Below, one piece after another: positions 7,736 to 55,818 of a DNA stretch of 64,000 nt. The translations under genes were made by a program, and so were the position numbers. Position 1 is the first letter of the stretch; each line of letters begins with the position of its first letter. Below the pieces are notes generated by a model. It made no database searches. It saw only the letters and a list, made by a program, of their open reading frames with translations, and was not told the origin of the DNA. The stretch comes from a virus. The stretch lies in IMG/VR virus record IMGVR_UViG_3300029554_000001, one strand, 5' to 3'.

Positions 7736-8928
7736 TAATTAAATAGTCTGGCTATTTGGTAACAAATAGAAAAATTTACATGGTGAACCTATAAATATAG
7801 GGTGTCATTCTCACTTTTGGAATTATAGGAAATGATAATTAAGAGAATGGCTAACAGGGGAAGCCTAAGTTGTTTAATATGGTAATCCTGTGGTAGAAGA
7901 ATTGTTTAATTATAAAAGAAAGGAGGAAATTCAATGGGTGGATGGAATTTTATTGATAGAACTGGAATGACCTTTGGAAAATTAAAAGTACAAAAGTATT
8001 TAGGGAATAAAAAGTGGTTGTGTCACTGTGAGTGTGGAAATGATTGTATTGTTAATTCAGATAATCTTCCCATTAACGGCAAAAGAAGAATGACAAAATC
8101 TTGTGGCTGTTTGAAAGAAAGTCGCCTAATAAAGAATTTAGATTTCTTTGATGTTATTGATACTGAAGAAAAGGCTTATATTTTAGGATTTTTAGCCTCG
8201 GATGGGTGTGTTACTTATAATGAAGAAACAAAATCTTATTATATAAAAGTAGTTGTTAATTCAATTGATAGAGATTTACTAATACAATTCAAAAAAGCTT
8301 TTGGAACAAAAGCAGAAGTGAAAATTTTTAAAACATTTACACACTTACCCCAAGGTGGCGAATGTGAATCTGAAATGAGTAGTTTGTTATTATGCAGTAA
8401 GCATTTAACTAAACAATTAATAAAATATGGAGTAACACCAAAGAAAAGTTTAACTCTTGATATTGATTATTCTCTTGTTCCAGATAATTTAAAGAGACAC
8501 TTTTGGAGAGGCTTGTTTGATGGTGACGGAACTTTTGGGCTTTTTGGTAAGAAAAAACTTTTAGAGGTTAGTTTGACTACATCAAAAAATATGGCTGAAC
8601 ATACAAAAGAAGAAATCCTTAAGTTTTTTCCAGAAAGTAAAATTGGATGTTATTTAAGAAAAGAATGTTCTGGTAACACTTACAACATGATTTTCACTAC
8701 TCAAAAAGATGGGTTAAATTTTTTATCTTATATGTATGAAAATAGTAATATAAGATTAGAAAGAAAATATCAAAAATATTTAGAAATTAAAAACAATTCT
8801 TAAACTCAAACGACTATCCCGAGAGGGAGTACATTTAAGGTGAAATTCCTTATTTGGAAGTGCCATGCTCCTTGTTTACAAGGATGAAGATATAGTCTAG
8901 CCCTTTAAGGAAACTAAAGGTAGTAGCG
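7736..8928 (+). mobile_element. group I intron with a LAGLIDADG ORF inside the RNA polymerase gene
   Basis: P1: exon CAGAT (7731-7735) pairs with GTCTG (7746-7750), giving a U-G pair at the splice site. The core CTCAAACGACTATC ... GAGTAC ... GATATAGTCT follows the ORF. Splicing after G8928 restores the frame (...AAQSRQI-DKTKIGENVK...). Confidence 0.7.
7934..8803 (+). CDS. LAGLIDADG homing endonuclease, intron-encoded
   Basis: Two LAGLIDADG motifs (ILGFLASDGCV and WRGLFDGDGTF); own RBS AAAGGAGG. Confidence 0.85.
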   Translation: MGGWNFIDRTGMTFGKLKVQKYLGNKKWLCHCECGNDCIVNSDNLPINGKRRMTKSCGCLKESRLIKNLDFFDVIDTEEKAYILGFLASDGCVTYNEETKSYYIKVVVNSIDRDLLIQFKKAFGTKAEVKIFKTFTHLPQGGECESEMSSLLLCSKHLTKQLIKYGVTPKKSLTLDIDYSLVPDNLKRHFWRGLFDGDGTFGLFGKKKLLEVSLTTSKNMAEHTKEEILKFFPESKIGCYLRKECSGNTYNMIFTTQKDGLNFLSYMYENSNIRLERKYQKYLEIKNNS

Positions 8929-9835
8929 AGATAAAACCAAGATTGGCGAAAATGTTAAAGCAGAAGCAACAATTTGGAAACAATATCAACATATAAATCC
9001 AGAAGATTCTCCAGAAGAAATTAAAAGGAAAGAATTTCTTAATTCTCTCTTAGCTGATAAAAAGCCTTATTTTTTCCGATACAAATATAACACTTTAAGT
9101 AAAGAATACAATGAATTTGTTAAGAAAAACGACCAAGATTGCCAGCTTAGATTTGCTTGCTCTTTAAAAGAGTTGTTAGCTAAAGATGAGAATTTATTAA
9201 ATGAAAGTCAAAAAGAATTTATTAGATATTATAAACATTTTCTTCCTGTGGTTGATTCTAATTGTGTGATGAATCAAATTTGTAAATATATTGAAAATGT
9301 TGATTTCCATATTAGAGAAAAAGTACGTTCTTCTCAAAACTTTGATTATCATACTTTAATGTCTGATGGTTTTGTAATTAATAAAAAGATATATGAACAA
9401 ATTAACGATTTAGTATCAAGTAGAATTAAGGAATGGGCAGCTAAAAGAACAGAAAAAGTTCTTGACGGAGCATTTGCAAGTAAGACAGTAAATCCAAGCA
9501 AGGTTCTTGATAGAGATTTAGAATATAATATTTTAAGACAAGATTTATTAACTAATATTTGTTCTAATGAAGAACAATTAGCAAACCATTTAATATATTT
9601 ATTTTATGTAGATAAACAGTCTTATAACAAGAATATTCTTTGGGCTTTAGTTGGAAGACAAATATACGAGAATATAAGAAAAAAGACCTCTGTTTATTAT
9701 TTTCCTCAAAAGAATCCTAATGGTTCTTTAGAGTTTTTATATGAGAAGTATTCTATTGAAAGAGTGCTTGTAAGTCATGAAGAGGAAATTGAAGAAGAGG
9801 AAAAAGGTATAAAGGAGGAATCTTTTTATGATTGA
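8929..9835 (+). CDS. RdRP/YonO-type RNA polymerase, exon 2
   Basis: Open upstream of track ORF 9173..9835 back to the proposed 3' splice site; TGA stop. Confidence 0.55.
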
Positions 9836-16020: not shown

Positions 16021-17061
16021 GAAATCCTTATGAAAACGCTGACGTTCATAGTGATATGTTCGAAAAAATACTCCTTTAACTGCTGGGAACTTCTAAGGCT
16101 TAATTAACTAAAGCGGAATATGAAAATATAAACGTAAAAGTTGCGAAAGCAGAAAAAATAATTAAGATGACTTATGGTTAAATCCTAAAAGTTGTAATAA
16201 TGAACAATCAGCAACCAAGCTCCTGTAAAATGGAGAAGGCTCAACGACTATCTCGAAAGAGAGTAGGGGAAACCCGAAATGGGGAGATTCTTTTAATAAG
16301 AATAAGATATAGTCTAATTAATTGAAAAGAAGTGATGTAAAATAGACGAAAAAGAATATACCGTATATTAGCATATAAACAAATTAAATCGGAAGCGATA
16401 CATTGGTATGACTAACTAGCCCGTAAATAAAAGATGGGGTAAAAATGGATAGCGGTATTTAAGATAGAACAAAAATGGGGAATACAATTAGCCAGCAATA
16501 GCAAGAGCTATTTTAAAATATGGCTGGGATAATTTTAGTCATGAAATTATAAGTTCTGGCTTAAGTGTGGAAGAAGCCTGTCAATTAGAATATGATTTGA
16601 TAGAAAAATATCACACAAGAGATTCTAACTATGGGTATAATTGTACTTATGGAGGTATATATCACACTAAAACAGAAGAGGAAAAAGAAAAAATAAGTAA
16701 AAGTAACAAAAAGTTCTATGAGAGTCATTAGCATCACATGAAAGGGACACATTTATCAGAAGAAACTAAAAAACGTCTAAGTGAAATATTTAAAGATAGA
16801 GTTTTTTCTGAAGAAACGAAACAAAAAATGTCCCAAAACCATTGCAATGTAAATGGAGCAAAGAATCCAAGAGCTAAAAAGGTTCGTTGTATTGAAACAG
16901 GAGAAATATTTGAAACAGCTAAAGAAGCTGGAGAGAAATATCATAATTGTCCCTCAAATCCTCGGTGTGGAATTAGAGATTGTTGTAGGGGAAGAAGAAA
17001 AACTTCTGGAGTAGATGAAAATGGAAATGGTTTACATTGGGAATGGGTCGATTAAAAACAG
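16021..17061 (+). mobile_element. group I intron A with a GIY-YIG ORF
   Basis: P1: exon TCAGT pairs with GCTGA (16038-16042) with a U-G pair. P2 hairpin has a GUGA tetraloop. Conserved core CTGCTGGGAA...GCGAAAGC...ATGGTTAAATCCTAA...AATCAGC...CTCAACGACTATC...GAGTAG...GATATAGTCT. A P10-like match supports the 3' splice site after G17061. Confidence 0.8.
16336..17055 (+). CDS. GIY-YIG homing endonuclease in intron A; no canonical start codon
   Basis: EYTVY-TAG-HINK..RYIGMTN...KRW...ILKYGW...YGYN. At least 6 in-frame TAGs. The frame opens directly after a TGA (16333-16335) with no in-frame ATG, GTG or TTG ahead of the GIY motif. Confidence 0.6.
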
Positions 17062-17418: not shown

Positions 17419-18579
17419 CAAATCGAAAAGAAATACTCCGCACATTTAGTGATAAGTGTGTGCATCCCATTGAACTGCTGGGAGTTCTTAAAGGTTTTTG
17501 TACTACAGCATAATTATGAAATAAGAATAAGTGCGAATGTTACGAAAGTAAAAAGAAACAAAAACATGGTGCATGGTTAAATCCTAAACACTATATAATA
17601 GATAATCAGCAGCCAAGTCTTTAACAGAGAAAGGTTCAACGACTATCCCGTGACTGGGAGTAGGGGTTGTTAAAGAATAACAACTTCGAAGTGGTGGGAC
17701 ATCTTAATGAGATGATGATATAGTCTAAGCTTATATGAAAATATAAGAAGTAGGTTGTTTTTAAGGGCGACAAGGGAAGGCCATCCTTTATACATATCCG
17801 CAAAATATGTATATAGCCCTTTATATATTAAAAATACTTTTTGCGGGAGGTTTTTAATGAAAGATGATAGAAAATGGACAGTATATATTCATACTAATAA
17901 AGCAAATCAAAAGAAATATGTTGGAATAACTAGTACTTCTGTGATAGAAAGATGGCATCATGGACATGGCTATTTAACCAAAAAGAAAGATGGAAGTTTT
18001 TGTTAGCCAGCTATGGCTTATGCAGTATTAAAATATGGATGGGAAGGTTTTTCTCATGAAGTAATAGCTGAAAATTTGACTATGGAAGAGGCTTCTTAGA
18101 TGGAAAAAGAACTGATAGAAAAATATTAGTCTAATAACAAACATTTTGGATATAATATTAAAGAGGGTGGAATAGATGGATTGCCTTCTGAAGAATCAAT
18201 TCAAAAAGCTTTATAGACAAAACTTAAGAATGGATATCACCATAGTGAAGAAACTAAAAGGAAGATATCTGAAAGTAATATGGGTAAAACTCATACTGAT
18301 TCATCTAAAGAATTGTTAAGTAAAAGCCATAGTAAAACAAAACAGAGACCGAAGGAAGTAATTCCACGGAATGATACATATAATTAGGTTTATTGCCAAT
18401 GTGTAGAAACAGGAGAGTGTTTTCCCTCAATTTCTAACGCCGCTGTTAATACTGGCTCTTACAACCCAAATATAGTTAAATGTTTAAAAGGAACAAGAAA
18501 AAGAGCTGGCGGATATCATTGGAAAGAAATAACAAAAGAAGAATATGAAGAATACTGTGCCAACAACTGAAAATACTTG
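17419..18579 (+). mobile_element. group I intron B with a GIY-YIG ORF (junctions approximate)
   Basis: Same conserved core as intron A (17475-17730), including the GNRA-capped hairpin GCACATTT-AGTGAT-AAGTGTGTGC. I could not find a clean P1. Confidence 0.7.
17857..18570 (+). CDS. GIY-YIG homing endonuclease in intron B
   Basis: RBS GGGAGG. WTVYIHTN..KKYVGITS...ERW...VLKYGW...FGYN plus a C-terminal NUMOD-like region. Several in-frame TAGs; TGA stop. Confidence 0.8.
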
Positions 18580-20455: not shown

Positions 20456-21895
20456 ATGGCTGATATTAATAAGCTGCAAACGCTCATCCAATTGCGTCGT
20501 GGTTTTCAGGCGCAGTGGGATACAGTAGCTAATACTTACATTCCTAAAGCTGGTGAACCTTGTGTAACTCTTGATGGTAAGAACAAGGGTTAGATTAAGA
20601 TTGGTGATGGCACTTCCACATGGGGAGAACTCAAGTATGTTGGTGTCAATGAAGGTGCTATGCATTTTATTGGTACTGTTGCTACGAAGGCTGAACTTCC
20701 TGAAAGTGCCGAAACTGGTGACATTTATCAAGTAACTGAAGATAGCAAACTGTATATTTGGGATGGCGATAGCTGGGAGATTTTTCATGCTGTTGACCTG
20801 AGTAATTATTACACCAAAGAAGAGACTACTAATCTTGTAACTGTTGAGATTGGTAAGGTTAATGAAAAAGTAACTGCTAATACCAATAAACTTAACGAAG
20901 TAGAAACTAAAGTTAACGAAACTAATTCCAAACTTGAAAGTCTTGGAACAGAGCTTGCCAAGGATTATGCTCTGAAAGCTGACCTTGATGTTATTAAGGT
21001 TTATGGCGATACTACATCTGATACTTCCATGGAAGTTAATGGACAAAAGTATAATACTGCCAGTGAAGCTATTGCGGCTGTAAGCGCTGGTGGCACGATT
21101 AAATTGAGTGGTGGTCTTGGTGCAGATGAAGTTATTAATGCTGACAAGCAGTTTACTCTTGATATGAACAATGCGGTTATTGTTGATAATGAGAAGACTC
21201 CTGTTAATGTTAGTGTTAATGGTGCTTTGACTCTCACTGGTAATGGCAGTGTTGAATGTAATAAGAATGGTAAACCCGCTATTAACAATAATGGTAACTT
21301 GATTATTGAGAATGGCAGTTATACTCGTAGCGTTGATGAGAAGGGTAATTCTTATTATACCATGGTCAACCATGGTAATATTGTGATTAATGATGGTATT
21401 TTCCAAGCTCCTCGGATTGTTTCGAGTATGATTTCCAATGGTTATTGGGATTACACACAGGATTACAAAGCTGGCGAAATGGCAGAATATCCTGAATTGA
21501 CTATCAATGGTGGCACATTTATTAACGCTTTCTATGTTATTAAGAATGATGACAATGGTAAGCTTTATATTAATGGTGGTAACTTCTACGGTACTATTTT
21601 CAACAATGGTTACGAAATGGTTGTTAAAGGTGGTAATTTCAAAGTTACTGATGGGACTTACAATATTGGTATGCGCAAGTTAAATGATGTAATGAACTCT
21701 GGTAAGTTACTCATTGAAGGCGGTACATTCTACAGCAATGGCGAAGTTAACTTTAAGCACAACGGTGGTGGCGAAGAGCCTGAAGTTGTTATTAAAGGTG
21801 GTAAGTTTAGTGCTGTTGTACCTGAGAAATATATTGCAGCAGGCTATGAATAGAAGTACATAGATGGTTACTATGTTGTAAGTGCAAAAGCTTAA
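20456..21895 (+). CDS. tail fibre/spike with an Mtd_N/HylP-like N-terminus and beta-helix-like repeats
   Basis: N-terminus LQTLIQLRRGFQAQW...GEPCV...IKIGDGTSTWGELKY; repeated NGG.F / GNGS segments. Two in-frame TAGs (one extends the C-terminus). Confidence 0.65.
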
Positions 21896-22902: not shown

Positions 22903-24582
22903 ATGGCTGATATTTCTAAAATTAAGCTTGCAAATGGCACTACTGTAACTATTAAGGATGCTCAGGGTCGTGCTGATATGACTACTATTCTTGGTGGTCA
23001 CGCTCTTGAAGCTCTTGGTGCTGCCGCATGGCAAGCTATGGCTGCTAGTATTTCTGATGCTGGTATTGCTGACGCTGCTACTGTTAAGGCTTATGTTGAT
23101 TCTCAGGTTGGTCAGATTCATAACTTTGATGTTGTAATTGACCCTACTGGTACTACCGCTGGTCCTTCTGTAGTTGCTTCTGCCGATACTATGTACAAAA
23201 TTTATCTTGTTCCTTCTGAGGATGCAGCAGCGGGTGGCTATATTGAATATATTACTATTCGTTCTGGCGCAGAGGGTGCTTATACTTACACTTGGGAAGC
23301 TATTGGTAATACAAAGGTAAGCCTTACTGGTTATGTTCCTACTACGACCACTATTGCTACCATTGCTCTCGACCACAATATTACTGTTGCTGAACTTCAG
23401 ACTGCTCTTAAGCTTGGTGCAATGGCCTATGCTGATAAGGCTTCTGGTTCTGGCACTCTTCAGACTATTGACAGTATCACCATGAAGGAAGTTACTGTTG
23501 CTGGTAACGCCGCTGTTACTTCTAAGGCTGCTGATGCTACTCTTACTAAGGCTAACTATACCCCTGCTGGTAAGGTTACTGGCTCGGCAATTTCTGATGG
23601 TTCTATTAATGTTACTTTGAAGGATTCTGCTACTAAGACCGAGGCAACTCTTAGCACCTCTGAGTTCACTCCTGCTGGTACTATCGCCGCTAAGGAGGGT
23701 GGTTCTTTCTCCGCCCTGAAGACTGCTGCTTTTGGTGCTGCTGAGGACGGTGTTCAGATTGAGGGTACTGTCAGTGCTCCTGCAATTTCTCTTACTGCTG
23801 CTGATAAGACTTTTGCTACTGGTTTGACTGGTGGTAAGGCTGCTTCCTTTACTGAGGGTGCTTTTACTCCTGCTGCAATTCAGGACGGTTTCTATACTGC
23901 TGGTAAGGCTGCTGCTTGGACTGGTGCTGATTATACTGCTCCTACCATGGGTGAGGCTTCTAAGGCAAAATTCGCTTCCGAGGGTATTGTTGTCGATGTT
24001 GGTTCTGGTGATGACGCTGAAACTTTGATTTTCTCTGCCGCTGGTACTGCTGATGCTGTTACCGCTCAGGGCGCCTTTAACGCTGGTAATGTCGATTTTG
24101 GTACTTTCAATGGCGGTTCTGCTACTGTTATTGATACTACTAAGTTCTCTGGTGGTTCTAAGGCTGCTGACACCTTCACTCCTAATGAACTTCAGTCCGT
24201 TACTACTGGCAAGGTAAGCGAAGTTTCTGCTGCTGAGCTTGCCAATGCTCCTGTATTCACTGGTAGCAAGTATGCTGTTGCTACTACGGCCGATACCGCT
24301 CTCAAGGATGTTGCCTTCACTGCTACTAATAGTGCTACTATTGTTGACAAGGTTGAGTATGTTAAGCCTGAGATTGATGCTGCTACCTTCACTGGTACTG
24401 CTGCTACTCTTGGCTTTGTTGGTACTGAGGTTGTTGATGCTCTTGTCACTGGTGTTAAGTACGATAAGGCTGATGCTACTGCTGCCTTTAGCGTTGCTGT
24501 CACTCCCGAGACTGACGTTATCACTAAGACTGCTAAGACTGTTGAGATTGAGGTCTCTCCTGTCGCTAAGGCTGGCGAGTAA
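22903..24582 (+). CDS. Ala/Thr/Gly-rich fibre protein with an N-terminal ISKIKL module
   Basis: 559 aa with no TAG. Repeated (F/Y)TPAG motifs and strongly biased composition, which creates spurious overlapping ORFs. Confidence 0.65.
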   Translation: MADISKIKLANGTTVTIKDAQGRADMTTILGGHALEALGAAAWQAMAASISDAGIADAATVKAYVDSQVGQIHNFDVVIDPTGTTAGPSVVASADTMYKIYLVPSEDAAAGGYIEYITIRSGAEGAYTYTWEAIGNTKVSLTGYVPTTTTIATIALDHNITVAELQTALKLGAMAYADKASGSGTLQTIDSITMKEVTVAGNAAVTSKAADATLTKANYTPAGKVTGSAISDGSINVTLKDSATKTEATLSTSEFTPAGTIAAKEGGSFSALKTAAFGAAEDGVQIEGTVSAPAISLTAADKTFATGLTGGKAASFTEGAFTPAAIQDGFYTAGKAAAWTGADYTAPTMGEASKAKFASEGIVVDVGSGDDAETLIFSAAGTADAVTAQGAFNAGNVDFGTFNGGSATVIDTTKFSGGSKAADTFTPNELQSVTTGKVSEVSAAELANAPVFTGSKYAVATTADTALKDVAFTATNSATIVDKVEYVKPEIDAATFTGTAATLGFVGTEVVDALVTGVKYDKADATAAFSVAVTPETDVITKTAKTVEIEVSPVAKAGE

Positions 24583-26423: not shown

Positions 26424-26790
26424 TAAGTGACTGTGTAATTGTTCTATGAAGGCATGAGGTACAGATAAGTACAGTTTTGAAGTCTGAGAACAATAAGCAC
26501 GAATCTTTCGATGAACAAGTATTTATATATTGAGTAAGAATAGTTAGATATTTTTAACAATTGTTAAGAATTAAAAACGTGATTTTATTTGGTTATAAAC
26601 CACAAGATATAGGGGTGTTAATTTTACAACAATACCATATATGGTAGTCATCGCGTCTGACAATTTCTTGCTCAAAAATATTTGTATTATTATTTATAAA
26701 CCTATGAATATAGTAGGTTTGTTTGTGTATTCTTATACACGCAAAGCCCATTACACAGGGGCTTTAATATTAATGGGAGACCTCCAATTA

Positions 26791-26806
26791 TGCAAGAAAT
26801 CTTGCA
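26791..26806. repeat. left copy of the 16-bp site TGCAAGA-AA-TCTTGCA
   Basis: 7-bp perfect inverted arms around a central AA. It is the exact reverse complement of the site at 33061-33076. Confidence 0.6.
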
Positions 26807-26868
26807 GAAATAGGGCATGATTGGGGGTAAATAGATGCGTTTTCGTTGCAGGAAAACGCCGATTAAAC

Positions 26869-27354
26869 ATGAGTGTTCAAGTTGTTAACTCTGGAGGGTC
26901 TGACCCGAAATTGGGCGCATTCAGTGTAAAGTCAACGAAAATAATAGCAACATAGCTCGCTTCTTCATATAATCTTGAGGGTTTTAGTCAAGTAACCGTG
27001 AATCCAGTACAAATTTATAATGTAATTAGCACCGCAACTTATAGCACAGACGCATGGAATTCTTATAAAGCAACATGTACTCTTCCATATTAGGTGACTA
27101 AAAACTCAATTTGGCGGATTTTTTGGAGCTTTTGGGGAAAGGTAACTGTTTCTTCCTATGAAACAAACCAAGTTTGTGGTATTTTCATCCCTGACTCAAA
27201 TATTAATATATCTGTTATGAGTTGGGGCAGTATGGGGTTTAATTCCATTTATATGGCTAATGGATATACCAATAGTTTTACTATAAATGTAGTCAATAAC
27301 GGTACAATGTAGGTAGAAAGTGGCAATAACACCTTTGTTTATGTAATATATTAA
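26869..27354 (+). CDS. MSVQV-family cassette protein E (putative receptor-binding / fibre tip)
   Basis: MSVQVVNSGGSDPKL...; three in-frame TAGs; no SD sequence. Confidence 0.55.
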
Positions 27355-27375
27355 CGTTGCGTCCAATTGCCAATA

Positions 27376-27660
27376 TGCGTGTCAGTTCAGGTAGTCAATT
27401 TTAGTGGAGCTGGAGCGGATGAAATTTTAACTATTAATGATATTGAGCCAAGTGGTAGTATGCGTTCTTTTACTAGTAAAAACGGAGGGTACAGTAAAGT
27501 TATTATTCCAAAAAGTACACTTCCTCTTTTTTCTTTGGTTAATAGTTATTCTAATAACAATATTAATTATTCTAGTCTTTTATGCAATATAACAGAAAAT
27601 AATTATATTGTCATTCGGTCATACGGTGACTGTTATTGCTTTTTTAATAATAAATTATAG
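27376..27660 (+). CDS. MSVQV-family cassette protein F (short)
   Basis: GTG start giving (M)SVQVVNFSGAG...; no SD sequence. Confidence 0.45.
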   Translation, partial: CVSVQVVNFSGAGADEILTINDIEPSGSMRSFTSKNGGYSKVIIPKSTLPLFSLVNSYSNNNINYSSLLCNITENNYIVIRSYGDCYCFFNNKL

Positions 27661-27681
27661 CTTACAAAACTGTCTAATGAA

Positions 27682-28449
27682 ATGCCAGAAATAAAAGATA
27701 TTTCAGCATGGATTTATGGTCAAGCAGTAGCATTTGGAAATGGTAAAATTGTTATTACATTAAGGATGTCTCCTTTTAGTGGAGGAGATAGTGAATATCT
27801 CGGAATAGTTATTTTTAATTATAATTCTTCTACTGGTTTTTCTTTTTACAAAAGTTATAAACATACATCATTAGGTGGACAAGGAATACACCGCCTTTGT
27901 TATTTTAATAATAAATTTTATATGTCTGTTGATTCAACTTATAAATTATACTCTTCCAACAACGGGGAAAATTTTTCAGAAGTATCCGCAATTACTGAAA
28001 ATTGTTTAAATTTAGATTGCAATTCTTCTTATTTGTTTGTCAGAACACCATATGGGCTAAATTATTCTACTGATGGAACCTCGTTTTCTTTGTTAAGTAA
28101 TACTAATAATATGTATATTAATAATGTAATTTGTAGCGATATTGTTGCCGTAGAAGTGAGAGAAAACGACATGTCTGTGTGGAAACAATTTCAAAATGGA
28201 ACTTTAACTAATATTTTATATTCATACAATGGATATTACCATGAATTTAGATAGTATGGGAATTATTAGTTAATATTTATTACAAATCAATATTTTTTAA
28301 TAATTAAAAACAAAAATACTGGCGAATCAATACAAAAAAATTATATGTATGGCAATTTTGCTACAACTCCTGTAATAAATAATAAAATTTTTTTTGCTTA
28401 TGGTTCCAGAGGAATATCAGTGTTAGATTTAAGCTTTATGCAAATATAA
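27682..28449 (+). CDS. hypothetical protein, possibly a beta-propeller-like repeat protein
   Basis: Track ORF 27682..28254 extends through two TAGs to TAA at 28447-28449. Recurrent Y.S.(N/D)G..F segments. Confidence 0.5.
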
Positions 28450-28471
28450 TGTAGCAATAAAATGCCAGTAT

Positions 28472-29113
28472 GTGAGCGTACAGGTAAAATCATCAGGTTC
28501 ATCACCAACATTGCAATCTCGTACTGTTACTCCTTCAAGTTCTACTCAATATATTACACCTCAAAGTCGGTATGACGCTTTGAATTAGGTTACTGTATAG
28601 GGAGATAGTAATTTGGTTAGCTCTAATATTAAGAGTGGCGTTAGTATATTTGGAGTTAGTGGAAGTTTAACACAAGGGAAACAAGTTTTTGTAACAAATA
28701 ATTCTAATGCCTCTACTGCTATGTAGGAAAACATTACTTTTACATTTGATTATAATTTAGCACAATTTTCTAGCAGTATTCCTTATTATATAGGAGTAAA
28801 CCGTCAAGCGGCTGCATCGTTTGTTCGGTCAACAAGCCCAGATGATTTAACAGTTGAAAGTTTTTCTTACTTAGGATTTGAAGTTTCTCCTTATGTAACG
28901 GGGTGTTTATTAACAACAGTAGCTCAATATAATCCACAAACAACTTACATTGAAACTCATATTATAGGACGGACTCTAAACTCTTTAGAATGGACAATAA
29001 ATAATTACACTTTAACTTTAAAAATAGCAAATTACACTCCTTCTACAAAATTGTTATTTTTAGATAATAAACTTACTAAAAATTCTTCTTATATATGTAC
29101 ATTAATTTTTTAA
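28472..29113 (+). CDS. MSVQV-family cassette protein G
   Basis: GTG start; (M)SVQVKSSGSSPTLQSRTVTPSSSTQYITPQSRYDALN-TAG-VTV-TAG-GDSNLVSSNIKSGVSIFGVSG. Confidence 0.55.
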
Positions 29114-29137
29114 TTTGAAAGGAGGAATATACGACAT

Positions 29138-29461
29138 ATGGCAACAACTAAAAACATTCTCATGAAGCAAAAAAATTCTTCTGATTATGATACTATTTAT
29201 CCTATTACAGAAGAAACTTATACAAATGTTACCATGACTAGTGGCGGTTGGAGTAGCTCTTAGTATAGCTTTGAGGATACTTATCCTAATGCAAAGTATA
29301 ATATTTCTGTATCCGTGGCAAGTACGGCAAGTTCTGCTCAATTCGATGCTTTCGGTAAAGCTAAAATTGTTGGTAATGCAACTACTAATGTCGTTAAAGC
29401 TTTGGGAACAGTTCCTACTGTTGATATACCTGTAATGTTAAAGATTACTAGGAAGGGTTAA
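29138..29461 (+). CDS. small protein S1, paralogue of S2
   Basis: Strong RBS GAAAGGAGG. ...VASTASSAQFDAFGKAKI... aligns with S2. Confidence 0.6.
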
Positions 29462-29546
29462 GATTTTTTGGGTTTTTAATATTACTTTGCAAACTATAGT
29501 TTTAAAAATGATACTATAGTTTAATTAAAATTTTAATTAAATTATA

Positions 29547-29589
29547 AAGCCTAGGAGTTATTGTTCTTGCGATGGTAACTCTTAGGCTT
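29547..29589. terminator. bidirectional hairpin between the convergent cassette blocks
   Basis: AAGCCTAGGAGTTA ... TAACTCTTAGGCTT. A 20-nt perfect palindrome TTAATTAAAATTTTAATTAA lies at 29521-29540. Confidence 0.5.
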
Positions 29590-29623
29590 GAAAAATAAAT
29601 AATAAACAAGTAATTTAAAGATA

Positions 29624-30364
29624 TTAATTTGTTACTATGGCATATAAATAAGTCATTTCTCCTCCAAATGTATAATACCCAGAATAATTCACCGTAAGAA
29701 TACCATCTGATAATTGATAACTAAATTCTATTCCAAAGGATATTGCCTCATCCCGTTTTGCCATAAAAAATTTATTAGAACCTGAAACAACAGAAGAATA
29801 ACCAGCTACTATAAGTTCTCCATCATAAGGTTTTTCTTGCGCTAAAAGTACAACAAATAATATATTTTCATTAGAAGTAATGCCAGAAACGGGAATTGTC
29901 AAACTTGTTGAGCTATTACTATTAAAATAGGCTCCGTAATATCCTTTTTGTCCAGTTCCGCCACTAGATAGACTTCCATTCACGCCAAATATACTAATAC
30001 CAGATTTAATATTTTCTGAGATTAGATTGGAATCTCCATACACATACACCCCACTTAATCCACTATATCCAGAAGAAGGTGTAATGTTTTGCGGGTAAGA
30101 AGCGGGAGTTACATATTGGGTTGATTGATTATTTGTTCTGGCTGTAACAGAAGATAGTCCACTATACCCTGAATCTGGAGACACTGTGGCAGAACTTGAA
30201 GAAAGAGTTACAGATTTACTCTGTAAATTAGGTTTTACAGTTATAGAAGACATTCCATCATAACCAGATTGCGGTGAAAATGTAGTTGCTGAGGTAGATG
30301 TAAGACTAACGCTTCTTGATTGAAGATTAGCTCCTCCACCTTGAGTAAGGACTTCTACGCTCAT
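29624..30364 (-). CDS. MSVQV-family cassette protein D, with three tandem LQSK..GYDGLS repeats
   Basis: MSVEVLTQGGGANLQSRSV...SGYDGMSSITV / NLQSKSV...SGYSGLSSVT / ...SGYSGLSGVYVYGDSNLISENIKSGISIFGVNG. Its ATG overlaps the S2 stop (ATGA). Confidence 0.7.
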   Translation of the reverse strand: MSVEVLTQGGGANLQSRSVSLTSTSATTFSPQSGYDGMSSITVKPNLQSKSVTLSSSSATVSPDSGYSGLSSVTARTNNQSTQYVTPASYPQNITPSSGYSGLSGVYVYGDSNLISENIKSGISIFGVNGSLSSGGTGQKGYYGAYFNSNSSTSLTIPVSGITSNENILFVVLLAQEKPYDGELIVAGYSSVVSGSNKFFMAKRDEAISFGIEFSYQLSDGILTVNYSGYYTFGGEMTYLYAIVTN

Positions 30365-30690
30365 ACTTTATTCACCACCTTTAAAACAACGGGAATGTCT
30401 GTTGAGATTGGAACTGTGCCTAAAGCTTTAATTGTATTAGAAGTAGATGAACTTCCAATTTTAGCCTTTGTAAAAGCATCAAACTATGTAGATGTAGCTG
30501 TAGATGATACAGAGATGGATAAATTATATTTGGAATTCGGATAGTCGGATTCAAAACTATATGCTCCACTTGACCAAGATGCTCCATAGAGTGTGTAATT
30601 AACATATTGAACTGGTGGGCTGAATGGATATAATTTATCGTAAGACCGAGAATCATTCTTCTGTTGGATGAGAACATTCTTGTCAGCCAT
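30361..30690 (-). CDS. small protein S2, paralogue of S1
   Basis: RBS GAAAGGAG. Track ORF 30484..30690 continues through TAG (rc of 30484-30486) to TGA. Confidence 0.6.
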
Positions 30691-30856
30691 AATTGACTCC
30701 TTTCTATGTATATAAGTATAGAATTAAAAAGTATTATTAGTTTGATAGTTTTTAATTTTATAATATTAAATGCATATATTAAAATAAATGATATTAATGG
30801 GAAAACAGGTGCGTTTTGTGCTATATTTAATTGGGCAGTTTAAAGCAACTCATCTT

Positions 30857-31474
30857 TTAAATAAATAAAGTCATTTCAACCTAGCTCGCTGTTATTGTAT
30901 TGTAATACCAAGTATTATAAATTCCCCTACTTTCAAAACTAAGTATTATACCATTATCAGTAAGCTATCCCCGTTTGTATATGACAGACATAATAGCTTG
31001 TAAATTAGTATAACTATAATCATATAAGGGATAATTGGTATATATTCCCGATGGTGTTAAATTTCCAGTGCCAGAATCATTATACAACCCACAATTAATA
31101 CCAGAATACATTAATATTCCACTTTTTATTGGAGAGCTTGGAAAAGCCACAAATAGAGCAATCCCGCACAATTTCTTAATATATGATAAATAACTATTAT
31201 CCCAAGCATATTGATAGTTACTACCCGTTGATTGAGTTCCATTATTAAAGTTTAATGTTGGGGTTTTATAATAATTAGACCCATCATAAGTAAAAGTAAC
31301 GTTCTTAAAAGAGAAAAACGTATAGCCATAACTATTACTCTATAAACTAACACTAGATAAACCATCATAACCAGAATCAGGTTGTATAAATTGCGAATAT
31401 AAAAAACTAGAGTATGCTACTTTTGATTGTAATTTAGGTTCAGAACCACCAGAACTAGCAACCTAAACACTCAT
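30857..31474 (-). CDS. MSVQV-family cassette protein C
   Basis: ATG AGT GTT TAG GTT gives MSV-TAG-V. Includes ...QPDSGYDGLSSVSL... and four in-frame TAGs. Confidence 0.55.
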
Positions 31475-31502
31475 TTAGATTTAGGCATTAATAGACAACT
31501 AT

Positions 31503-32171
31503 TTATATATAAAAATAAGCAGTTCCTGTTCTTTGAAGAGAAGAAAAATTGGCAAATTGCTAATACATATCAGTAGACATACCCCAAGAAAATGACAAAG
31601 TAGAAGAGGGCAAAGAAGAAATGGATATGCCTGTATCAAGTCCGTAATAAACAGTCGTATTATTGTTAATAGTAGCATTAATACCACAATTTCCAGAATG
31701 GATTGCCGTGAGAATCGAACCTGACTCTATCCAAGCAACATCCCATTCACAAGCATAAAAACCAAATGCACTAAAGCTTGTACTATTACTTTGTTGCCAC
31801 AATGAAATTGTAGCAGCATAGACAAAAGGGAAATAAGAAGTTGTGAAAGAATAAGGAATAGGTATAGATATAGAAACCATATACATCTATCCAAACCGAT
31901 TTAAATTTTCTTGCTAAACTGTTTCTTGCGAAGAAGTCCAAGATAAATCTGTTTTCAGTTTTTCTACTCCTTTGTAATTACCTATCACACCAAAAATATT
32001 CACATCAGATTTAATATTACTACTAATCAAGTTACTACTTCCGTTTATAGTGACCTGACTTAATCCATCGTAACTTGAATCAGGCTTTATATATTGTGTA
32101 CTTGAGGATGGTGTAATAGTTTTAGACTATAACTGAGGACTTCCACCAATTGTTTTTACCTAAATAGACAC
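31503..32171 (-). CDS. MSVQV-family cassette protein B
   Basis: GTG TCT ATT TAG GTA start. ...SPQL-TAG-SKTITPSSSTQYIKPDSSYDGLSQVTINGSSNLISSNIKSDVNIFGV... Confidence 0.55.
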
Positions 32172-32208
32172 ATCTTGGGCGTTAAAATGCTTCTTTTATA
32201 TTTTAAAA

Positions 32209-32832
32209 TTAAATTATTTTAAATAAATAGCAATCTGTAAGAGTGTAAGTATTCCAAACGAAAGCTCTAAAATAAGAGCCAAGCGCCCACAATCTGTATT
32301 GAATTGTCATGCCAGTAGAAGAAATAGCGGTTATTTTATTTTCATCGTCATGAGCAAAACCCCAAATTGGGTCAACAATATTGAAATCGCCTGTGGAGGG
32401 AGTATATTCTCCTAAATAAAACCGATAATAATTTTGTGTATTTGGCATAGATAATTTAGTAGTATTATTAATATTATTATATTTAAAATAATATTGGTAA
32501 AAAATCTAAAATCTACTTGAGGTACTTTCAGAAGAATATCCCAATAAAAATTGGAGTAAATAATTTCTATTCTCCCAATTTTGGTTCTAATAAAAAGAAA
32601 CGGACAAAGTAGACAATGCGGTATTTCCAGATGCTTGTTCTACTTTTAAAGTGGTTGGAGATTTCACAAATAAATTTTCATATGTTATAGAATTTGTATA
32701 AGCAGAAACAATAACGTTACTTAATCCATCATATCCAGAATCAGCCGTAATGGTCTAGCTATATGTCTAAGGAGATACGGTTTTACTTTGTAATTTGGGA
32801 GAACTGCCTGTAGAAAGACATTGTATGCTCAA
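32209..32832 (-). CDS. MSVQV-family cassette protein A
   Basis: TTG start; (M)SIQCLSTGSSPKLQSKTVSP-TAG-TYS-TAG-TITADSGYDGLSNVIV... Confidence 0.5.
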
Positions 32833-32939
32833 TTATTTGGCATTTGGAAGCAACATGCTTTTTGAGAATTGTTTTGAGAACCTAAATTAAAAAAATTTAG
32901 ATTTTCAAAAGACCGCTCAAATACGCCCACTTTACTTAA

Positions 32940-33060
32940 GTAAAGCTGTTGCGTTAGCATCGAAAAATGCAACAAAAAAGATGCAAGTTGCGCGAAATTC
33001 TCAATTAAATGCAACTTTGAGAAAAATGTGATTTGTTGCACGAAACACCATCAAAAAATG
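32940..33060. promoter_or_regulatory. cluster of TGCAAC/GTTGCA and TTGAGAA half-sites
   Basis: GTTGC-16nt-GCAAC, TGCAAG-TTGCG, TGCAAC-22nt-GTTGCA, plus ATTCTCAA/TTGAGAA repeats, all next to the right 16-bp site. Confidence 0.4.
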
Positions 33061-33076
33061 TGCAAGATTTCTTGCA
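33061..33076. repeat. right copy of the 16-bp site TGCAAGA-TT-TCTTGCA
   Basis: Reverse complement of 26791-26806. Lies 72 nt upstream of the holin-like gene. Confidence 0.6.
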
Positions 33077-34612: not shown

Positions 34613-35320
34613 TCAATCTTCTTCATCAAGCTTAAGAAGTCTATCTTTATATTCTTTTTCAATGCGTTCGCGTTCTAACTTCTCTGCTTTGCGCTGATTT
34701 TTCTCTACAATACTGGGTCTAAAATACCCTCTTTTATCACAAAAACGTTTCATTGTAGAACGATTAACATGAAAAAGTTTTGCTACATCTGCGTAACAGT
34801 TGTCTTGTTCAACAATCAATGCCTTAATGGTCTCTTCGTATTGAGTTAACTTTGTACTTTCTCCTAAAGAACCTTTCGGTCTACCAAGCTTTACTCCACT
34901 TGCTTTTCTCATCGCAAGTGCTTCCTTGGTTCTCTGACTAATAAGATTACGTTCAATTTCAGCAGAAAGTCCAAAAGCAAATGCTAAGACTTTGCTCTGA
35001 ATATCATCGCCTAATACAAATCCATCTTTGATTGTTCTTACTTGACAGCCTTTTTCCATACACAAAGAAAGAATGTCCATAATCATATAAAGACTTCTAC
35101 CAAGACGAGAAATCTCAGAGCAAATAATGATATCTCCACTTTGTACCTTTTTAAGAAGTTTTCCTAACTTACGCTTTTCGGGATTCTTTGTGCCAGAAAT
35201 CGTTTCTTCAATCCAGCCATCAATTTTCATGCCGTGCTTTTCACAATATTGGTTGATTTCAAAACGCTGGTTCTCAACAGTCTGCTGGTCAGTACTTACT
35301 CGAATGTAACCAAAAGTCAT
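34613..35320 (-). CDS. small serine recombinase (resolvase/invertase family)
   Basis: YIRVSTDQQ catalytic Ser motif, ...SRLGRS..., and a C-terminal HTH (HVNRSTMKRF). 235 aa, no TAG codons. Confidence 0.85.
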   Translation of the reverse strand: MTFGYIRVSTDQQTVENQRFEINQYCEKHGMKIDGWIEETISGTKNPEKRKLGKLLKKVQSGDIIICSEISRLGRSLYMIMDILSLCMEKGCQVRTIKDGFVLGDDIQSKVLAFAFGLSAEIERNLISQRTKEALAMRKASGVKLGRPKGSLGESTKLTQYEETIKALIVEQDNCYADVAKLFHVNRSTMKRFCDKRGYFRPSIVEKNQRKAEKLERERIEKEYKDRLLKLDEED

Positions 35321-37146: not shown

Positions 37147-38465
37147 TAAGAATTTATATGAATTATAAACGAATAGCTAACGTTCACAGTAATGTGTTCG
37201 AAAAAGCGACAAATTGAATTGCTGGGAAATCCTAAAGTTGATTCAACTACAACGTAATTATGAAATATGAATAAGCGTGAATGTTGCGAAAGCAGAAAAA
37301 ATGAATCAAATATTTACATGGTTAAATCCTAAATAAATATAAATGGGTAATCAGCCGCTAAGTTCTGAAAAAGAAAAAGTTCAACGACTATCTCTGTTAA
37401 AGAGAGTAGAACCAAGTGGTTCGAAGTGGTTTGCCCCTTTTAATTAAGGGTGAAGATATAGTCTGTGCTTTATAGAAATATAAAGAAGTTCATAAGAGAA
37501 CTGCTTAAGTGTAACGAACTTAAGTGACCAATGTTTATTAATAAATTATATTATCAAAAGACATAAAATTTTTTAAAGAAAGGAGGGATAGAATGATTCT
37601 TCACGAAGAAGTGGATATTAATATAAATAACAGAAATATTACTTATTATAAGAATAAAGGATATGATTGTAAATCTGGAGATACATTGAAAGTAAAAGAA
37701 AAAGATATCCTTCCAACAAGCCCTTTAAAAGAAGAAAGAAAATGCGATGTTTGTGGACAAAACTTCATAAGAAGAAGAGATAATAATATTGAATCTTTTA
37801 ATAGATTTGGGAAAGATGTTTGTCCTCATTGTTTTAAAACTAATAAAAATATTAAAGATATAGTTCAACAAAAGAGAGAAAAAACTTTTATAAACAACTA
37901 TGGAGTAAATAATCCTATGTTTGTTCCAGAGTTTGTTGATAAAATTGGAGATACCTTAGAAGAAAAATATGGGGCAAGGAATCCATCTCAAATAGAAGAG
38001 TTTAAAATTAAACAAGAAGAATCTATGTTGGAAAAATATGGTGCTCGTAAAGCTTTGCAAGTAAAGCAGTTTCAAGAAAAATTTATAAAAACCATAAGTG
38101 AGAATTATTCTGTGAAGACCTCTTCTCAATAGGTTGCTTGTTTTAATATGTTAAAAGAGCGTGGATATAATGTTGAATTAAATTATCCTTATTCTACTTG
38201 TTCTTTAGATATTTTAATTATTATGCCAGATGGGACAAAAATTGACTTTGAATATGATGGAAGTCATTGGCATGATGATGAATAGAAAAAAAGAGATAGA
38301 AAACGTGACGAGTTTTTAAAAGGACAGGGTTTTAAAATAATTAGAATGGAATCTAAAAGAAGTATTCCCTCTTGGGAACAAATTGAAGATGAGATAAATT
38401 ATTTAATGGAAAAACCAGAAAGAAAATTTGCTCATTTATGTATTGATAATATAAACAATTGATAG
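37147..38465 (+). mobile_element. group I intron C with a Vsr/EDxHD-like endonuclease ORF
   Basis: P1: exon TTAGT pairs with GCTAA (37176-37180) with a U-G pair. P2 has a GUAA tetraloop and the core matches introns A, B, D and E. Splicing after G38465 gives ...FAPFS-TQEFELHTLENQ... Confidence 0.8.
37593..38462 (+). CDS. intron-encoded homing endonuclease, Vsr-like/EDxHD (I-Bth0305I-like) family
   Basis: RBS AAAGGAGGG. Repeated (E)KYGxxNP modules, then LDILII...IDFEYDGSHWHDDE-TAG-KKRDRKRDEFLKGQGFKIIRME. Two in-frame TAGs. Confidence 0.6.
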
Positions 38466-43704: not shown

Positions 43705-45151
43705 TAAATATAAGTACGTTATAAATAGCTAGGGCGTATAGTAATATGCGTAAAAATATTTCCATTTAATTGCTGGAATACCGTAAAGACAATCAAACTA
43801 CAACGCAAAATTGAAATAGATTTAATCGTGATAGTTGCGAAAGCAGAAAAAATTGATTGTATGATATAAGGTTAAACCCTAAGTATCTTAAAAATTGGTA
43901 ATCAGCAGCCAAGCTTCGAAAAGAAGAAGGTTCAACGACTATCCTCGTAAGAGGAGTAGGAATATAGTCAATAAATTATTCCGAAATGGTGGACATCCTA
44001 TAGGGATGAAGATATAGTCTAAGCTTGTGTGAAAATACAAGAATCCGAAAGGGTTAGAGCGAATTGACGATTCGAAAAATTTAGTGTTTAAATAAAATAA
44101 AAAGGAGGTTTGTATGTTAAAAGAAAATCAATTGATTGAAATTCCTTGGACACAAACCGCTTAGAAATATTTCAATGAAAAAGGTTATAGTCTTTTTAAA
44201 GGGAAGACTATTCATGTTAAACCAGAAGAATTACCAGAAGGAAGCCATAGAGAAGTTGTGGCTGTTTGTGATTTTTGTGGAAAAGAAATAACGGTTCAAT
44301 ACAAAAAATATTTAAAAAGAATAGAAAAGCATGATGGTAAATATTGTTGTAGAGATTGTTGGGGAAAGAATAAAGAGCTAATAGCTCAAAGAAATAATAA
44401 GTCTATAAAAACAAATTTAGAAAAATATGGAGTAGATAATCCTGCTAAAAGTGAAGAAATTAAGGATAAATCTAAAAAGACTTTAAATGAAAAATATGGG
44501 GTGGATAATCCTCGGTAGATTAAGGAAGGTCAAGAAAAAGCAAAACAGACTTGTTTGAAAAAATATGGAGTTGAATATCCAATTTTAACAAAAGAAGCAA
44601 AAGAAAAAGCTGTTAAAACTTGTTTGGAAAAATATGGAGATGTAAATCCTTTTTCGAATAAAGAAGTAAGAGCTAAAGCTATCAACACTTGCAGGGAAAA
44701 ATACGGTTGTGATTATCCCGTACAAAATCCAGAAGTGCGAAAAAGAATGCAAGAAGCATTAGCTAATAAAAAAGAATTAATTCCATGTTCTTCACAACAG
44801 TTAAAAATTTATGAAATGCTTTTAGATGAATATAAAGTAGAGTTGAACTACCCTTTAAGTCAACTCAATTTAGATGTAGCTATTTTTATTGGAGATATTA
44901 AAATAGATTTGGAATATGATGGTTGGTATTGGCATCAAGACCAGTAGAAAGATATAAAAAGAGATAGAGTAGTTCAAAAAATGGGTTACAAAGTCTTAAG
45001 AATAAAAGGAGACCATTCTATTCCAGAAAAACAAGAAATAATTGACAAGATAAATTGGCTATTAAAAGATAATAATTATTATGCTGAAATAATTTTAAAA
45101 GATTATGAATAGCAAAAAGCTAAAAACACTAAATAACTCTTAATATAACTG
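43705..45151 (+). mobile_element. group I intron D with a Vsr/EDxHD-like endonuclease ORF
   Basis: P1: exon CTGGT pairs with GCTAG (43728-43732) with a U-G pair. P2 has a GUAA tetraloop and the core is conserved. Splicing after G45151 gives ...VDW-Y-HVASGRQDWG... in frame. Confidence 0.8.
44114..45136 (+). CDS. intron-encoded homing endonuclease, Vsr-like/EDxHD family (paralogue of 37593..38462)
   Basis: RBS AAAGGAGG. Five KYG(V/C)(D/E)(N/Y)P repeats, then LDVAIF..IDLEYDGWYWHQDQ-TAG-KDIKRDRVVQKMGYKVLRI. Four in-frame TAGs. Confidence 0.6.
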
Positions 45152-51522: not shown

Positions 51523-51910
51523 CGGATGCCGAGTCCGCATTTGCTTGGCTAAAGAGTAACCGTATACAGTGATGTGTATGTAAAAATAGTCTTTGAATTG
51601 CTGGAATTCCCTAAAGCTGTTTATGCTACAACAAAAGGATGAAATATGCCTAATTGTGAATGCTACGAAAGTAAAAAGAAATAAACAGATGATATATGGT
51701 TAAATCCTAAGTGTTGAATAATGGGTAATCAGCCGCTAAGTCTTGAATAAAGAAAAGTTCAACGACCATTTCGAAAGGAAGTATACCACAAGTGATTGGT
51801 GGTAGAAGTGGAGACTGCCTTTTAATAAAAGGTAATGATATGGTCTAATCTTATATGAAAATATAAGGCGAAAGCAAAATAAGAGTAGCGTCTTATTTTA
51901 AATTAAAATG
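51523..51910 (+). mobile_element. group I intron E, without an ORF
   Basis: Same core as introns A-D (TTGCTGGAATT...GCTACGAAAGT...ATGGTTAAATCCTAA...AATCAGCCGCTAAG...GTTCAACGACCATT...GATATGGTCT). P10: TTGGCTAAAG pairs with the exon 2 start TTTTAGCTGG. The omega G is at 51910. Confidence 0.75.
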
Positions 51911-55319: not shown

Positions 55320-55818
55320 AATAAACCTATTGACACAAGAGGTCAGGGTTGCCAGAGAAGTTGTATATTGGGCTACCATCCAGTGATGCAATGGAGGCTT
55401 ATTAGGGTTGTCAGGTTTCCACAGGGTAGCAATTAAAACTGTCCGACCAACATACTTTCATGCGTGGTTTCAAACGGAAGAGAAAGGCGTTTTAAGGTGT
55501 CGGCATAAACCTTATCATCTTATATACCATGTTGTATATTTAGACCAGCTACGAGGCATAGTCTTGCAGCTTTTTAATGTGGTGTCCATGAGCACAGGAT
55601 AAGGACTTAAAGAAGACCAAATTTACGGGTTCGTAAAACGGGTCTGAGCCATATATCTCATGTACCATGTGTACAAGGAGTTCCTTAAGACGTTAGAGTT
55701 TAGCTTTAGCGTTTTATGCAATGAAAAAGGTGAGACAGGGAGTAGCTACCTTTTGTTTTGCCCCAACAAAACAATTATCATCTTTTTCATTTTTAATTAA
55801 GACTTGGGGGTTTTAGTT
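55320..55818 (+). ncRNA. candidate large structured noncoding RNA, family not recognised
   Basis: About 500 nt with no credible ORF and visibly more G+C than the surroundings. Nested hairpins include AGACC-AAAT-TTACG-GGTT-CGTAA-AACG-GGTCT, GTCCGACC...GGTGTCGG, GCTACC...GGTAGC, AAAAGGT...ACCTTTT and GTTTTG-CCCCAA-CAAAAC. Confidence 0.4.

Follow-up and report, generated by a model that had tools for sequence, protein, structure and literature searches.

In the 64,000-nucleotide stretch of DNA analysed here (the window), taken from the IMG/VR virus record IMGVR_UViG_3300029554_000001, the region from 26.8 to 32.9 kb is in our judgement likely to be a multi-site shufflon of whole tail-fibre or receptor-binding-like genes, driven by a Gin-like DNA invertase encoded beside it. 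The first-pass annotation of this DNA had envisaged a simpler device, a 6.3-kb segment flipped as a unit between two inverted 16-bp palindromes by a nearby serine recombinase. The core of that idea has stood: the array is invertible, it lies beside a Gin-like invertase, and relatives, when checked for the opposite orientation as had been proposed, did contain individual cassettes and the central module in flipped form. What had to change is the number of sites, at least seven instead of two, and the repertoire of outcomes, which includes deletions. As judged from the comparison of assembled genomes, the array is rearranged at a 2-bp CC, by inversion between opposed sites and by deletion between direct sites.

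Rearrangements among related genomes

We compared the window with over 50 related contigs from gut metagenomes. An invertase 97-100% identical to that of the window is encoded by ten IMG/VR contigs (36-220 kb, eight above 120 kb), and 7 viral and 24 human-gut metagenome contigs were retrieved with the left-flank half-site as bait. In blastn alignments the right flank is collinear through its palindrome to about 32849 and the left flank to about 26860, while the array between them is rearranged. The constant left-flank half-site, which ends in GTTGCAGGAAAACG immediately before CC, leads into some 20 different cassette starts among 31 contigs; the sequences diverge directly after GCC. Two contigs stop exactly at this GCC, as at an assembly fork, which hints at switching within a sample. 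At the right flank, one cassette is found with different arms (window and L009) and one arm with different cassettes (L005-L007).

Individual cassettes can be followed from place to place. Cassette D lies directly behind the left-flank half-site in L003, L140, L153 and L173. Cassette A belongs to the left block in the window and in L008, but L006 and L171 have it beside the right flank in flipped orientation; conversely, cassette F, at the right flank in the window, is found inverted at the left flank in L172. Five genomes that share a 100% identical 1.7-kb central module display four arrangements. The pool from which cassettes are drawn is large, with 64 clusters among the 110 cassettes sampled. 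A linkage test on orthologous cassettes (at least 88% identical) locates the exchange: the arm and spacer preceding a cassette are fully reassorted, with five unrelated types among seven copies in three clusters, while the arm and spacer behind it remain linked and differ by point variants only. Exchange must therefore take place at one point only, which lies between positions 13 and 17 of the site, at GCC.

Both types of product occur in closely related genomes. L176 differs from L174 by inversion of the 2,882 bp that lie between two opposed sites; the three blocks are 99.4-99.9% identical. L181 lacks 2,728 bp of L174, four cassettes bounded by direct sites, and shows 3 mismatches over 6,013 bp; the lengths of the two contigs (L174, ERZ1304089, 212,099 bp; L181, ERZ1304610, 209,371 bp) differ by exactly 2,728 bp. 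The junctions in L174 read ...GTTGTATACAATT-A-CC-caatt and ...GTTGCAGGAAAAC-G-CC-gattg, and the reciprocal ones in L176 read ...GTTGCAGGAAAAC-G-CC-caatt and ...GTTGTATACAATT-A-CC-gattg. Since position 14 (A or G) stays with the arm and position 17 (c or g) with the cassette, exchange is confined to CC (C15C16), a central 2-bp overlap of the Hin/Gin type. Misassembly is an unlikely cause of these rearrangements, because partner sites share few identical bases, far below typical de Bruijn k-mer lengths. L174 and L181 are near-identical and complete-length, and apparently come from one study, to judge by their accession series.

The recombination sites

The 5′ leaders of the cassettes carry a common motif, GTTGY-N8-GCC, placed 5-10 nucleotides (nt) before the start codon. 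Strict matches are found at 26845 and 27356 on the plus strand and at 30849, 31499 and 32854 on the minus strand; degenerate ones are at 28451 (plus) and 32193 (minus). All seven sites of the array point inward, toward the central module, and elsewhere in the 64 kb there are two chance-like strict matches. The same inward-pointing layout is present in L001, L003, L006 and L008, and relatives have 5-13 sites. Because all sites point inward, the layout stays closed under inversions between opposed sites. With at least three sites in both orientations and variants related by opposed-site inversions, the array is a shufflon in the broad sense.

The sites and the neighbouring arm-motif cluster are as follows.

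26845-26864 (plus): site S1, GTTGCAGGAAAAC-G-CC-GATT; crossover CC at 26859-26860; the left part is the constant left flank
27356-27375 (plus): site S2, GTTGCGTCCAATT-GCC-AATA; arm and spacer linked to cassette A in 7/7 orthologs, next cassette varies
28451-28470 (plus): degenerate site S3, GTAGCAATAAAAT-GCC-AGTA
30830-30849 (minus): site before the central module, GTTGCTTTAAACT-GCC-CAAT; its equivalent is the inversion/deletion junction in L174/L176/L181
31480-31499 (minus): site GTTGTCTATTAAT-GCC-TAAA
32174-32193 (minus): degenerate site GAAGCATTTTAAC-GCC-CAAG; different downstream cassettes in L174 and L175
32835-32854 (minus): site S7, GTTGCTTCCAAAT-GCC-AAAT; the arm is the constant right flank
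32948-33040 (no strand): arm-motif cluster without GCC core, candidate accessory or regulatory dyads

The logo of 67 sites, (T)AAGTTGY-N4-AAWY-GCC-NA-WWT, is asymmetric and about 20 bp long. Its core is a short partial dyad, AAWYG-CC-NAWWT, rather than a 26-bp quasi-palindrome with two 12-bp half-sites. Between partner sites GCC alone is invariant, and the 8-bp spacers differ completely even within one genome. Loci of distant recombinase homologs (L011-L019, 50-58% identity) are without the site motif. A perfect 8-bp hairpin, GCGTTTTC-GTTGCAG-GAAAACGC (26837-26859, -10.3 kcal/mol), surrounds S1; it is kept in 32/32 contigs and is peculiar to the left flank.

The right flank contains six arm motifs in 300 bp, compared with 1.4 per kb in the window. 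They form dyads, GTTGC-N16-GCAAC (32948-32973), AAGTTGC-N19-GCAACTT (32985-33017) and a third with GTTGCAC (33035, N22 dyad), all lacking the GCC core. In 10 genomes their arms and spacing are invariant and their spacers variable; in L003 the third dyad (GTTGCACGAAATAGCC) matches the full site. These dyads are possibly bound by protein, either as accessory sites for the recombinase or as operators, and they are candidates for an accessory element other than a Fis enhancer.

The candidate recombinase

34613-35320 (minus): small serine recombinase of 235 amino acids (aa), a Gin-like DNA invertase without TAG; the proposed enzyme

The assignment of this open reading frame (ORF) to the resolvase/invertase family, already made in the first-pass annotation, is borne out by matches to Pfam Resolvase (3e-35, residues 3-143) and to the PHROG 'DNA invertase' (1e-46). 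The best PDB matches are Gin structures (4m6f/3uj3), whose alignment spans residues 1-196 and takes in both the YIRVSTDQQ active-site serine and the C-terminal helix-turn-helix. Tn3 and gamma-delta resolvases score nearly as high as Gin, and a charged C-terminal tail of about 40 aa extends beyond the layout of small serine recombinases. As the gene is free of TAG, it should be translatable without a suppressor. In every relative the invertase lies next to the array. Crossing over within 2 bp is how serine recombinases (Hin/Gin, resolvases) work. Taken together, the 2-bp crossover, the adjacency and the protein family lead us to assign the reaction to the neighbouring serine invertase, and we infer that it is this Gin-like protein that catalyses exchange.

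Cassette genes and TAG recoding

Under the standard code the interval shows few long ORFs. With TAG read through, it holds nine intact ones, four on the plus strand (26821-29461) and five on the minus strand (29624-32832), arranged convergently. The two convergent blocks described earlier are thus real, but they are not enclosed exactly by the palindromes, since the first true recombination site is 39 bp in from the left palindrome and the last is 206 bp short of the right one. The genes of the array are listed below.

26869-27354 (plus): cassette A, MSVQVVNSGGSDPKL..., TAG taken as Gln, tail-fibre-like paralog
27379-28449 (plus): cassette B, GTG start, MSVQVVNFSG..., about 356 aa
28472-29113 (plus): cassette C, MSVQVKSSGSSPTLQ..., 213 aa, joined to the central module
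29138-29461 (plus): 107-aa small gene with a strong Shine-Dalgarno (SD) sequence, plus-strand end of the central module; paralog (56% identity) of 30361-30690
29624-30364 (minus): central 246-aa tail-fibre-like gene, no TAG, three N-terminal repeats
30361-30690 (minus): 109-aa small gene, strong SD, first gene in the minus-strand half of the central module
30857-31474 (minus): cassette D, MSVQVASSGGSEPKLQ..., 205 aa
31503-32171 (minus): cassette E, GTG start, MSIQVKTIGGSPQLQ..., 222 aa
32209-32832 (minus): cassette F, TTG start, MSIQCLSTGSSPKLQ..., 207 aa

Seven of the nine are paralogs with a common N-terminal part of about 45-130 aa (MSVQV.SGGS.P.LQSKTV.P....Q.I.PDSGYDGLS.VTV...NIKSGV.IFGV.G) and unrelated C-termini, which are themselves mosaic; the other two are the small genes of 107 and 109 aa. 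Cassette C is 40% identical over 162 aa to cassette E on the opposite strand. Every cassette is a complete gene, and its start codon comes directly after its site. An in-frame TGA at 26818-26820 precedes the first cassette, and no constant 5′ gene part is fused to it, unlike in a Hin/Gin-type switch. The central module (29117-30850) is a conserved block with two convergent gene sets that moves and inverts as a single unit in relatives. Within it, the start of the 246-aa gene overlaps the stop of the 109-aa gene, an overlap that suggests translational coupling of the two.

At codon 4 of the common MSVQV N-terminus, some paralogs have CAA/CAG where others have TAG; examples of the latter are 31463-31465 and 32160-32162 in the minus-strand cassettes starting at 31474 and 32171. 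On this ground the phage most likely reads TAG as Gln. Reading TAG through raises the summed length of ORFs of at least 100 aa in the whole window from 19.6k to 26.1k aa. ORFs containing TAG are spread over the whole window. The codon is common in structural, lysis and cassette genes; the invertase and many leftward genes at 1-4.7 kb do without it. A tRNA scan of the window found none, hence no suppressor tRNA there. The phage itself, with a genome of about 210 kb, comes from the human gut and probably infects Clostridia.

A role in the tail is suggested by context. Upstream of the array are fibre-like genes, one of which (20456-21895) carries an Mtd_N domain; downstream are a holin-like gene, an Amidase_2+SH3 endolysin and the invertase. 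The central 246-aa gene has over 100 unannotated homologs. A distant homolog, P0085, belongs to an Oscillospiraceae prophage, where it has large tail proteins on one side and a Phage_fiber_2/Gp10_C protein with lysis genes on the other, and the closest BFVD entry, at 97% identity, is named 'Tail protein [Siphoviridae sp. ctUGQ45]'. The Mtd_N gene, the prophage context and the BFVD entry together mark the cassettes as tail-associated. The AlphaFold model of the central cassette, of modest confidence, has a predicted local distance difference test (pLDDT) score of 63 and an all-beta C-terminal domain; its PDB matches, all with E above 1e-3, are a tailspike, a pyocin fibre and an adenovirus fibre head. 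With their location in the tail-fibre module and their pattern of conserved N- and variable C-termini, the cassettes are plausibly receptor-binding or tail-fibre-like.

Objections, proposed mode of working and alternative explanations

Several observations weigh against a shufflon driven by the adjacent invertase. All variants are assembled contigs from different samples. The outer GTTGY arm is present only 5′ of the core, and the site is not dyad-symmetric like hix/gix. The direct-site deletion in L181 is atypical of Hin/Gin-type invertases and departs from inversion-only behaviour. The window also encodes a tyrosine recombinase (59966-60946). No promoter could be identified on either flank, a sigma-70 scan giving 52 matches against 48.6 expected. 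The cassette genes, with starts at 26869, 27379, 28472, 31474, 32171 and 32832 that are often GTG or TTG, lack a Shine-Dalgarno sequence: it is found in 0/5 of the cassette genes directly behind a site and is clear in at least 40 of 49 other genes. Only at the left flank does the half-site offer an AGGA, some 15 nt ahead of the cassette start. Finally, a fold search of the central cassette model against the PDB gave no significant match.

How would such an array work? As the genome comparison shows, exchange at CC between opposed sites inverts the intervening DNA, moves cassettes across the array and changes which cassette follows each constant flank; exchange between direct sites deletes cassettes. 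Expression would come only from the side read by the upstream tail-fibre operon, here the plus strand. The other side would be a silent archive, insulated by the right palindrome, which on the minus strand forms a hairpin (-11.3 kcal/mol) followed by a run of U, terminator-like toward transcription entering the array from the right. Of the two small paralogs at the ends of the central module, one would be expressed in either orientation, as with U/U′ in Mu G. This one-sided expression, with an archive on the other side, is a weaker part of our proposal. It is suggested by the plus-strand orientation of all genes flanking the array, the inward-facing hairpin and U-run, and the presence of a small paralog in each orientation. 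A scan for terminators picked out the right palindrome, the S1 hairpin and the terminator of the invertase, and nothing else.

The alternative that survives best concerns this step. Both blocks could always be expressed from promoters on the two flanks, in which case shuffling would alter gene order or dosage, or nothing. The 206 bp of conserved non-coding right flank with its dyads could hold a leftward promoter, and the failure to identify a promoter applies to both sides alike. The strand of the flanking genes and the hairpin facing leftward transcription speak against it, and small paralogs in opposite orientations make most sense if one strand is read. We regard permanent expression of both blocks as possible, although the less likely option.

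A more radical alternative denies programmed switching altogether: the array would be a hypervariable hotspot in which paralogs undergo rare homologous or illegitimate recombination, and the invertase would be incidental. Loci of receptor-binding proteins are known mosaic hotspots, the cassette C-termini are mosaic, and the evidence for rearrangement is entirely between-sample. Such a process, however, would hardly yield precise and reciprocal junctions at the same 2 bp of a 20-bp motif, where identity is too low for homologous recombination, nor genomes that are 99.4-100% identical elsewhere and differ by a single clean inversion or deletion. The strict inward layout, predicted by closure under inversion, and the invariant adjacency of the invertase point the same way, and we consider chance recombination improbable.

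Marginally less probable still is shuffling by the tyrosine recombinase, in the manner of Rci (R64) or Rin (bifidophages). The window does encode a Phage_integrase-family protein (326 aa, 59966-60946, plus strand; PF00589, 1.2e-8), deletions do occur, and the asymmetric one-arm site resembles sfx/rix (PMC6109161). Nevertheless, exchange is confined to the 2 bp CC, with positions 14 and 17 going to opposite sides in both reciprocal products, and the spacer is not reassorted relative to the upstream cassette. Tyrosine recombinases require partner sites to be homologous over a 6-8-bp overlap; here GCC alone is invariant, the spacers differ, and such an overlap would be heterologous. The gene is moreover 27 kb away and contains 3 TAG codons; its product may serve integration, dimer resolution or some other function. 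We also considered spacer positions 6-13 as a tyrosine-type overlap with TTGSC inverted arms; the linkage test and the reciprocal junctions led us to reject this.

The border palindromes

The two-site switch, in which the invertase cuts the palindrome centres and flips the whole 6.3-kb segment, is the least credible explanation: the palindromes are indeed conserved, inverted and reminiscent of hix/gix in their 7-2-7 architecture, with a serine invertase 1.5 kb off, but every mapped breakpoint lies at GTTGY-N8-GCC, the sequence just inside the palindromes is constant (32/32 left, 10/10 right) while the cassettes further in vary, and the centres differ within one genome and the arms are mutated in others.

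26791-26806 (no strand): left 16-bp palindrome, TGCAAGA-AA-TCTTGCA; apparently a fixed border element and not a crossover site, neighbours constant in 32/32 contigs
33061-33076 (no strand): right 16-bp palindrome, TGCAAGA-TT-TCTTGCA; never at a junction in 10 relatives

The basic description given in the first-pass annotation is correct. The left (TGCAAGAAATCTTGCA) and right (TGCAAGATTTCTTGCA) palindromes are exact reverse complements in inverted orientation, and a search allowing up to 2 mismatches found these two alone in the window (0.28 expected by chance; 2/100 shuffles reach two). Their proposed use as Hin/Gin-type crossover sites, on the other hand, has to be abandoned. The left palindrome has the same position, centre and neighbours on both sides in all 32 left-flank contigs, with a few arm variants; the right one has a fixed flank position and neighbours in all 10 right-flank contigs, with a few arm or centre variants. 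Exchange at a palindrome was seen in 0/32 left and 0/10 right contexts, and in none of 40+ contigs are the segments 26807-26844 and 32855-33060 swapped. The right centre is TA in L001 and TG in L009 (CA as written, plus an arm change). Contig 3300045988_175151 combines an AA centre on the left (L101) with a TA centre on the right (L001), as opposed to the matched AA/TT of the window itself. A serine recombinase could not productively recombine an AA centre with a TA centre. The fixed neighbours, this mismatch of centres and the arm changes thus argue that the palindromes are not crossover sites.

We infer instead that they are conserved border elements, a protein-binding site or an RNA hairpin; the operator-like, protein-binding role mentioned earlier as the alternative is now more likely than a crossover role. 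On the plus strand the left palindrome lies within a larger predicted RNA stem, CCAAUUAUGC/GCAUGAUUGG (-14.1 kcal/mol, z -3.1), in which two natural one-sided substitutions preserve G·U pairing. A 59-aa protein at 26641-26820, spanning the left palindrome, was rejected because of a 1-nt indel in three relatives. A scan of IMG/VR with the palindrome pattern returned more than 119 unrelated chance matches and was uninformative.

Comparison with known systems

The serine-invertase system Min of p15B, with six mix sites, likewise occupies a tail-fibre locus, adjoins a Gin-family invertase, and has several sites and many isomers. In Min, however, a constant 5′ part is joined to 3′ segments at sites within coding sequence, whereas here whole genes are exchanged at sites in 5′ leaders; in addition, the present sites are one-armed, the cassette pool is much larger, and precise deletions occur. 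The comparison with Mu G and P1 C drawn in the first-pass annotation is apt. Mu G/Gin, P1 C/Cin and e14 P/Pin all have convergent alternative tail-fibre sets, small accessory genes in both orientations (S-U/S′-U′), a 2-bp crossover and an adjacent invertase, and the central module of our array resembles such a core. These systems have two sites, each a 26-bp quasi-palindrome, a Fis-dependent enhancer and a constant Sc outside the segment, features that did not turn up in our array.

Among tyrosine-recombinase systems, the Rin shufflon of Bifidobacterium prophages uses an identical 11-bp rix site and constant Rc plus variable Rv segments (PMC6109161). It too belongs to Gram-positive gut phages, with several receptor-binding-protein cassettes each following a short asymmetric repeat and the recombinase at the end of the array (PMC6109161); our system departs from it in the 2-bp crossover, the neighbouring serine recombinase and the lack of a constant gene part. 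The R64/IncI shufflon (Rci, sfx) is similar as a multi-site array of asymmetric sites, each a conserved arm plus core, that is closed under inversion. Rci, in contrast, is a tyrosine recombinase acting on a 7-bp conserved core, and its target is the C-terminus of pilV, not whole genes. In the strict sense, which implies a tyrosine recombinase and a 6-8-bp identical core, the present array is not a shufflon, given its invariant GCC and 2-bp exchange. Finally, the res sites of Tn3/gamma-delta (site I plus accessory II and III) come to mind because the recombinase resembles resolvases about as closely as it does Gin and because direct-site deletion occurs. The three right-flank dyads, with their differing spacings and no core, recall accessory sites, a role that would be putative. 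Unlike res, each array has a single cluster of this kind and yields mainly inversions.

Searches of the literature turned up no account of this array system, and no second array-plus-invertase system was seen at 80 bacterial loci carrying the cassette N-terminal module. Megablast of 24-36 kb against GenBank phages gave no match, and the left-flank bait was absent from GTDB representative genomes. Relative to known systems, the new features would be whole-gene cassettes, sites in 5′ leaders, one-armed sites, a large pool, natural deletions and the setting in a TAG-recoded gut phage of about 210 kb.

Other features of the window

Rfam searches at gathering and permissive thresholds returned nothing relevant in the array or its flanks, and an exact-k-mer motif search found intron-like repeats only. 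Five intergenic regions (8804-9172, 16108-16407, 17581-17754, 37150-37592 and 43725-44113) share the long motifs AAGATATAGTCTA, TCAACGACTATC and GTTGCGAAAGCAGAA and adjoin homing-endonuclease-like ORFs. They are probably further group I introns, splitting terminase, portal and capsid genes; at its gathering threshold Rfam called only the intron at 51556-51867. A GC-rich island at 22903-24582 (46% vs about 31%) encodes a 559-aa Ala/Thr/Gly-rich fibre-like protein without a Pfam match, and a near full-length ORF is open on its opposite strand. Rfam also reported a 'drum' small RNA at 55350-55446 (plus strand), barely at the gathering score (43.6 vs 43 bits).

Implications

Host-range switching by inversion is textbook knowledge for Mu, P1 and p15B, but is barely documented in the large uncultivated phages by which gut viromes are dominated. 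Here up to a dozen whole tail-fibre genes would reassort with 2-bp precision, and the cassette types circulating in human samples number at least 60. The array accounts for the breaks and discrepancies found here in assemblies of these phages, and standard-code gene calling hides the whole system. If L174 and L181 derive from one subject or a time series, they would permit a direct estimate of the switching rate. A sequence-defined, testable site with a candidate enzyme, and one-armed sites at that, should be useful for studies of serine-recombinase mechanism and for engineering.

More tentatively, the unusual features may belong together in a system with an expression side and an archive side, combining one-armed sites, genes without a Shine-Dalgarno sequence, palindromes and res-like dyads that organise or insulate the array, and an enzyme that is a functional hybrid of invertase and resolvase, capable of both inversion and deletion. 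We think this fuller picture doubtful as it stands. If true, it would be of a kind not described for phages, drawing on a population-wide pool of dozens of cassettes.

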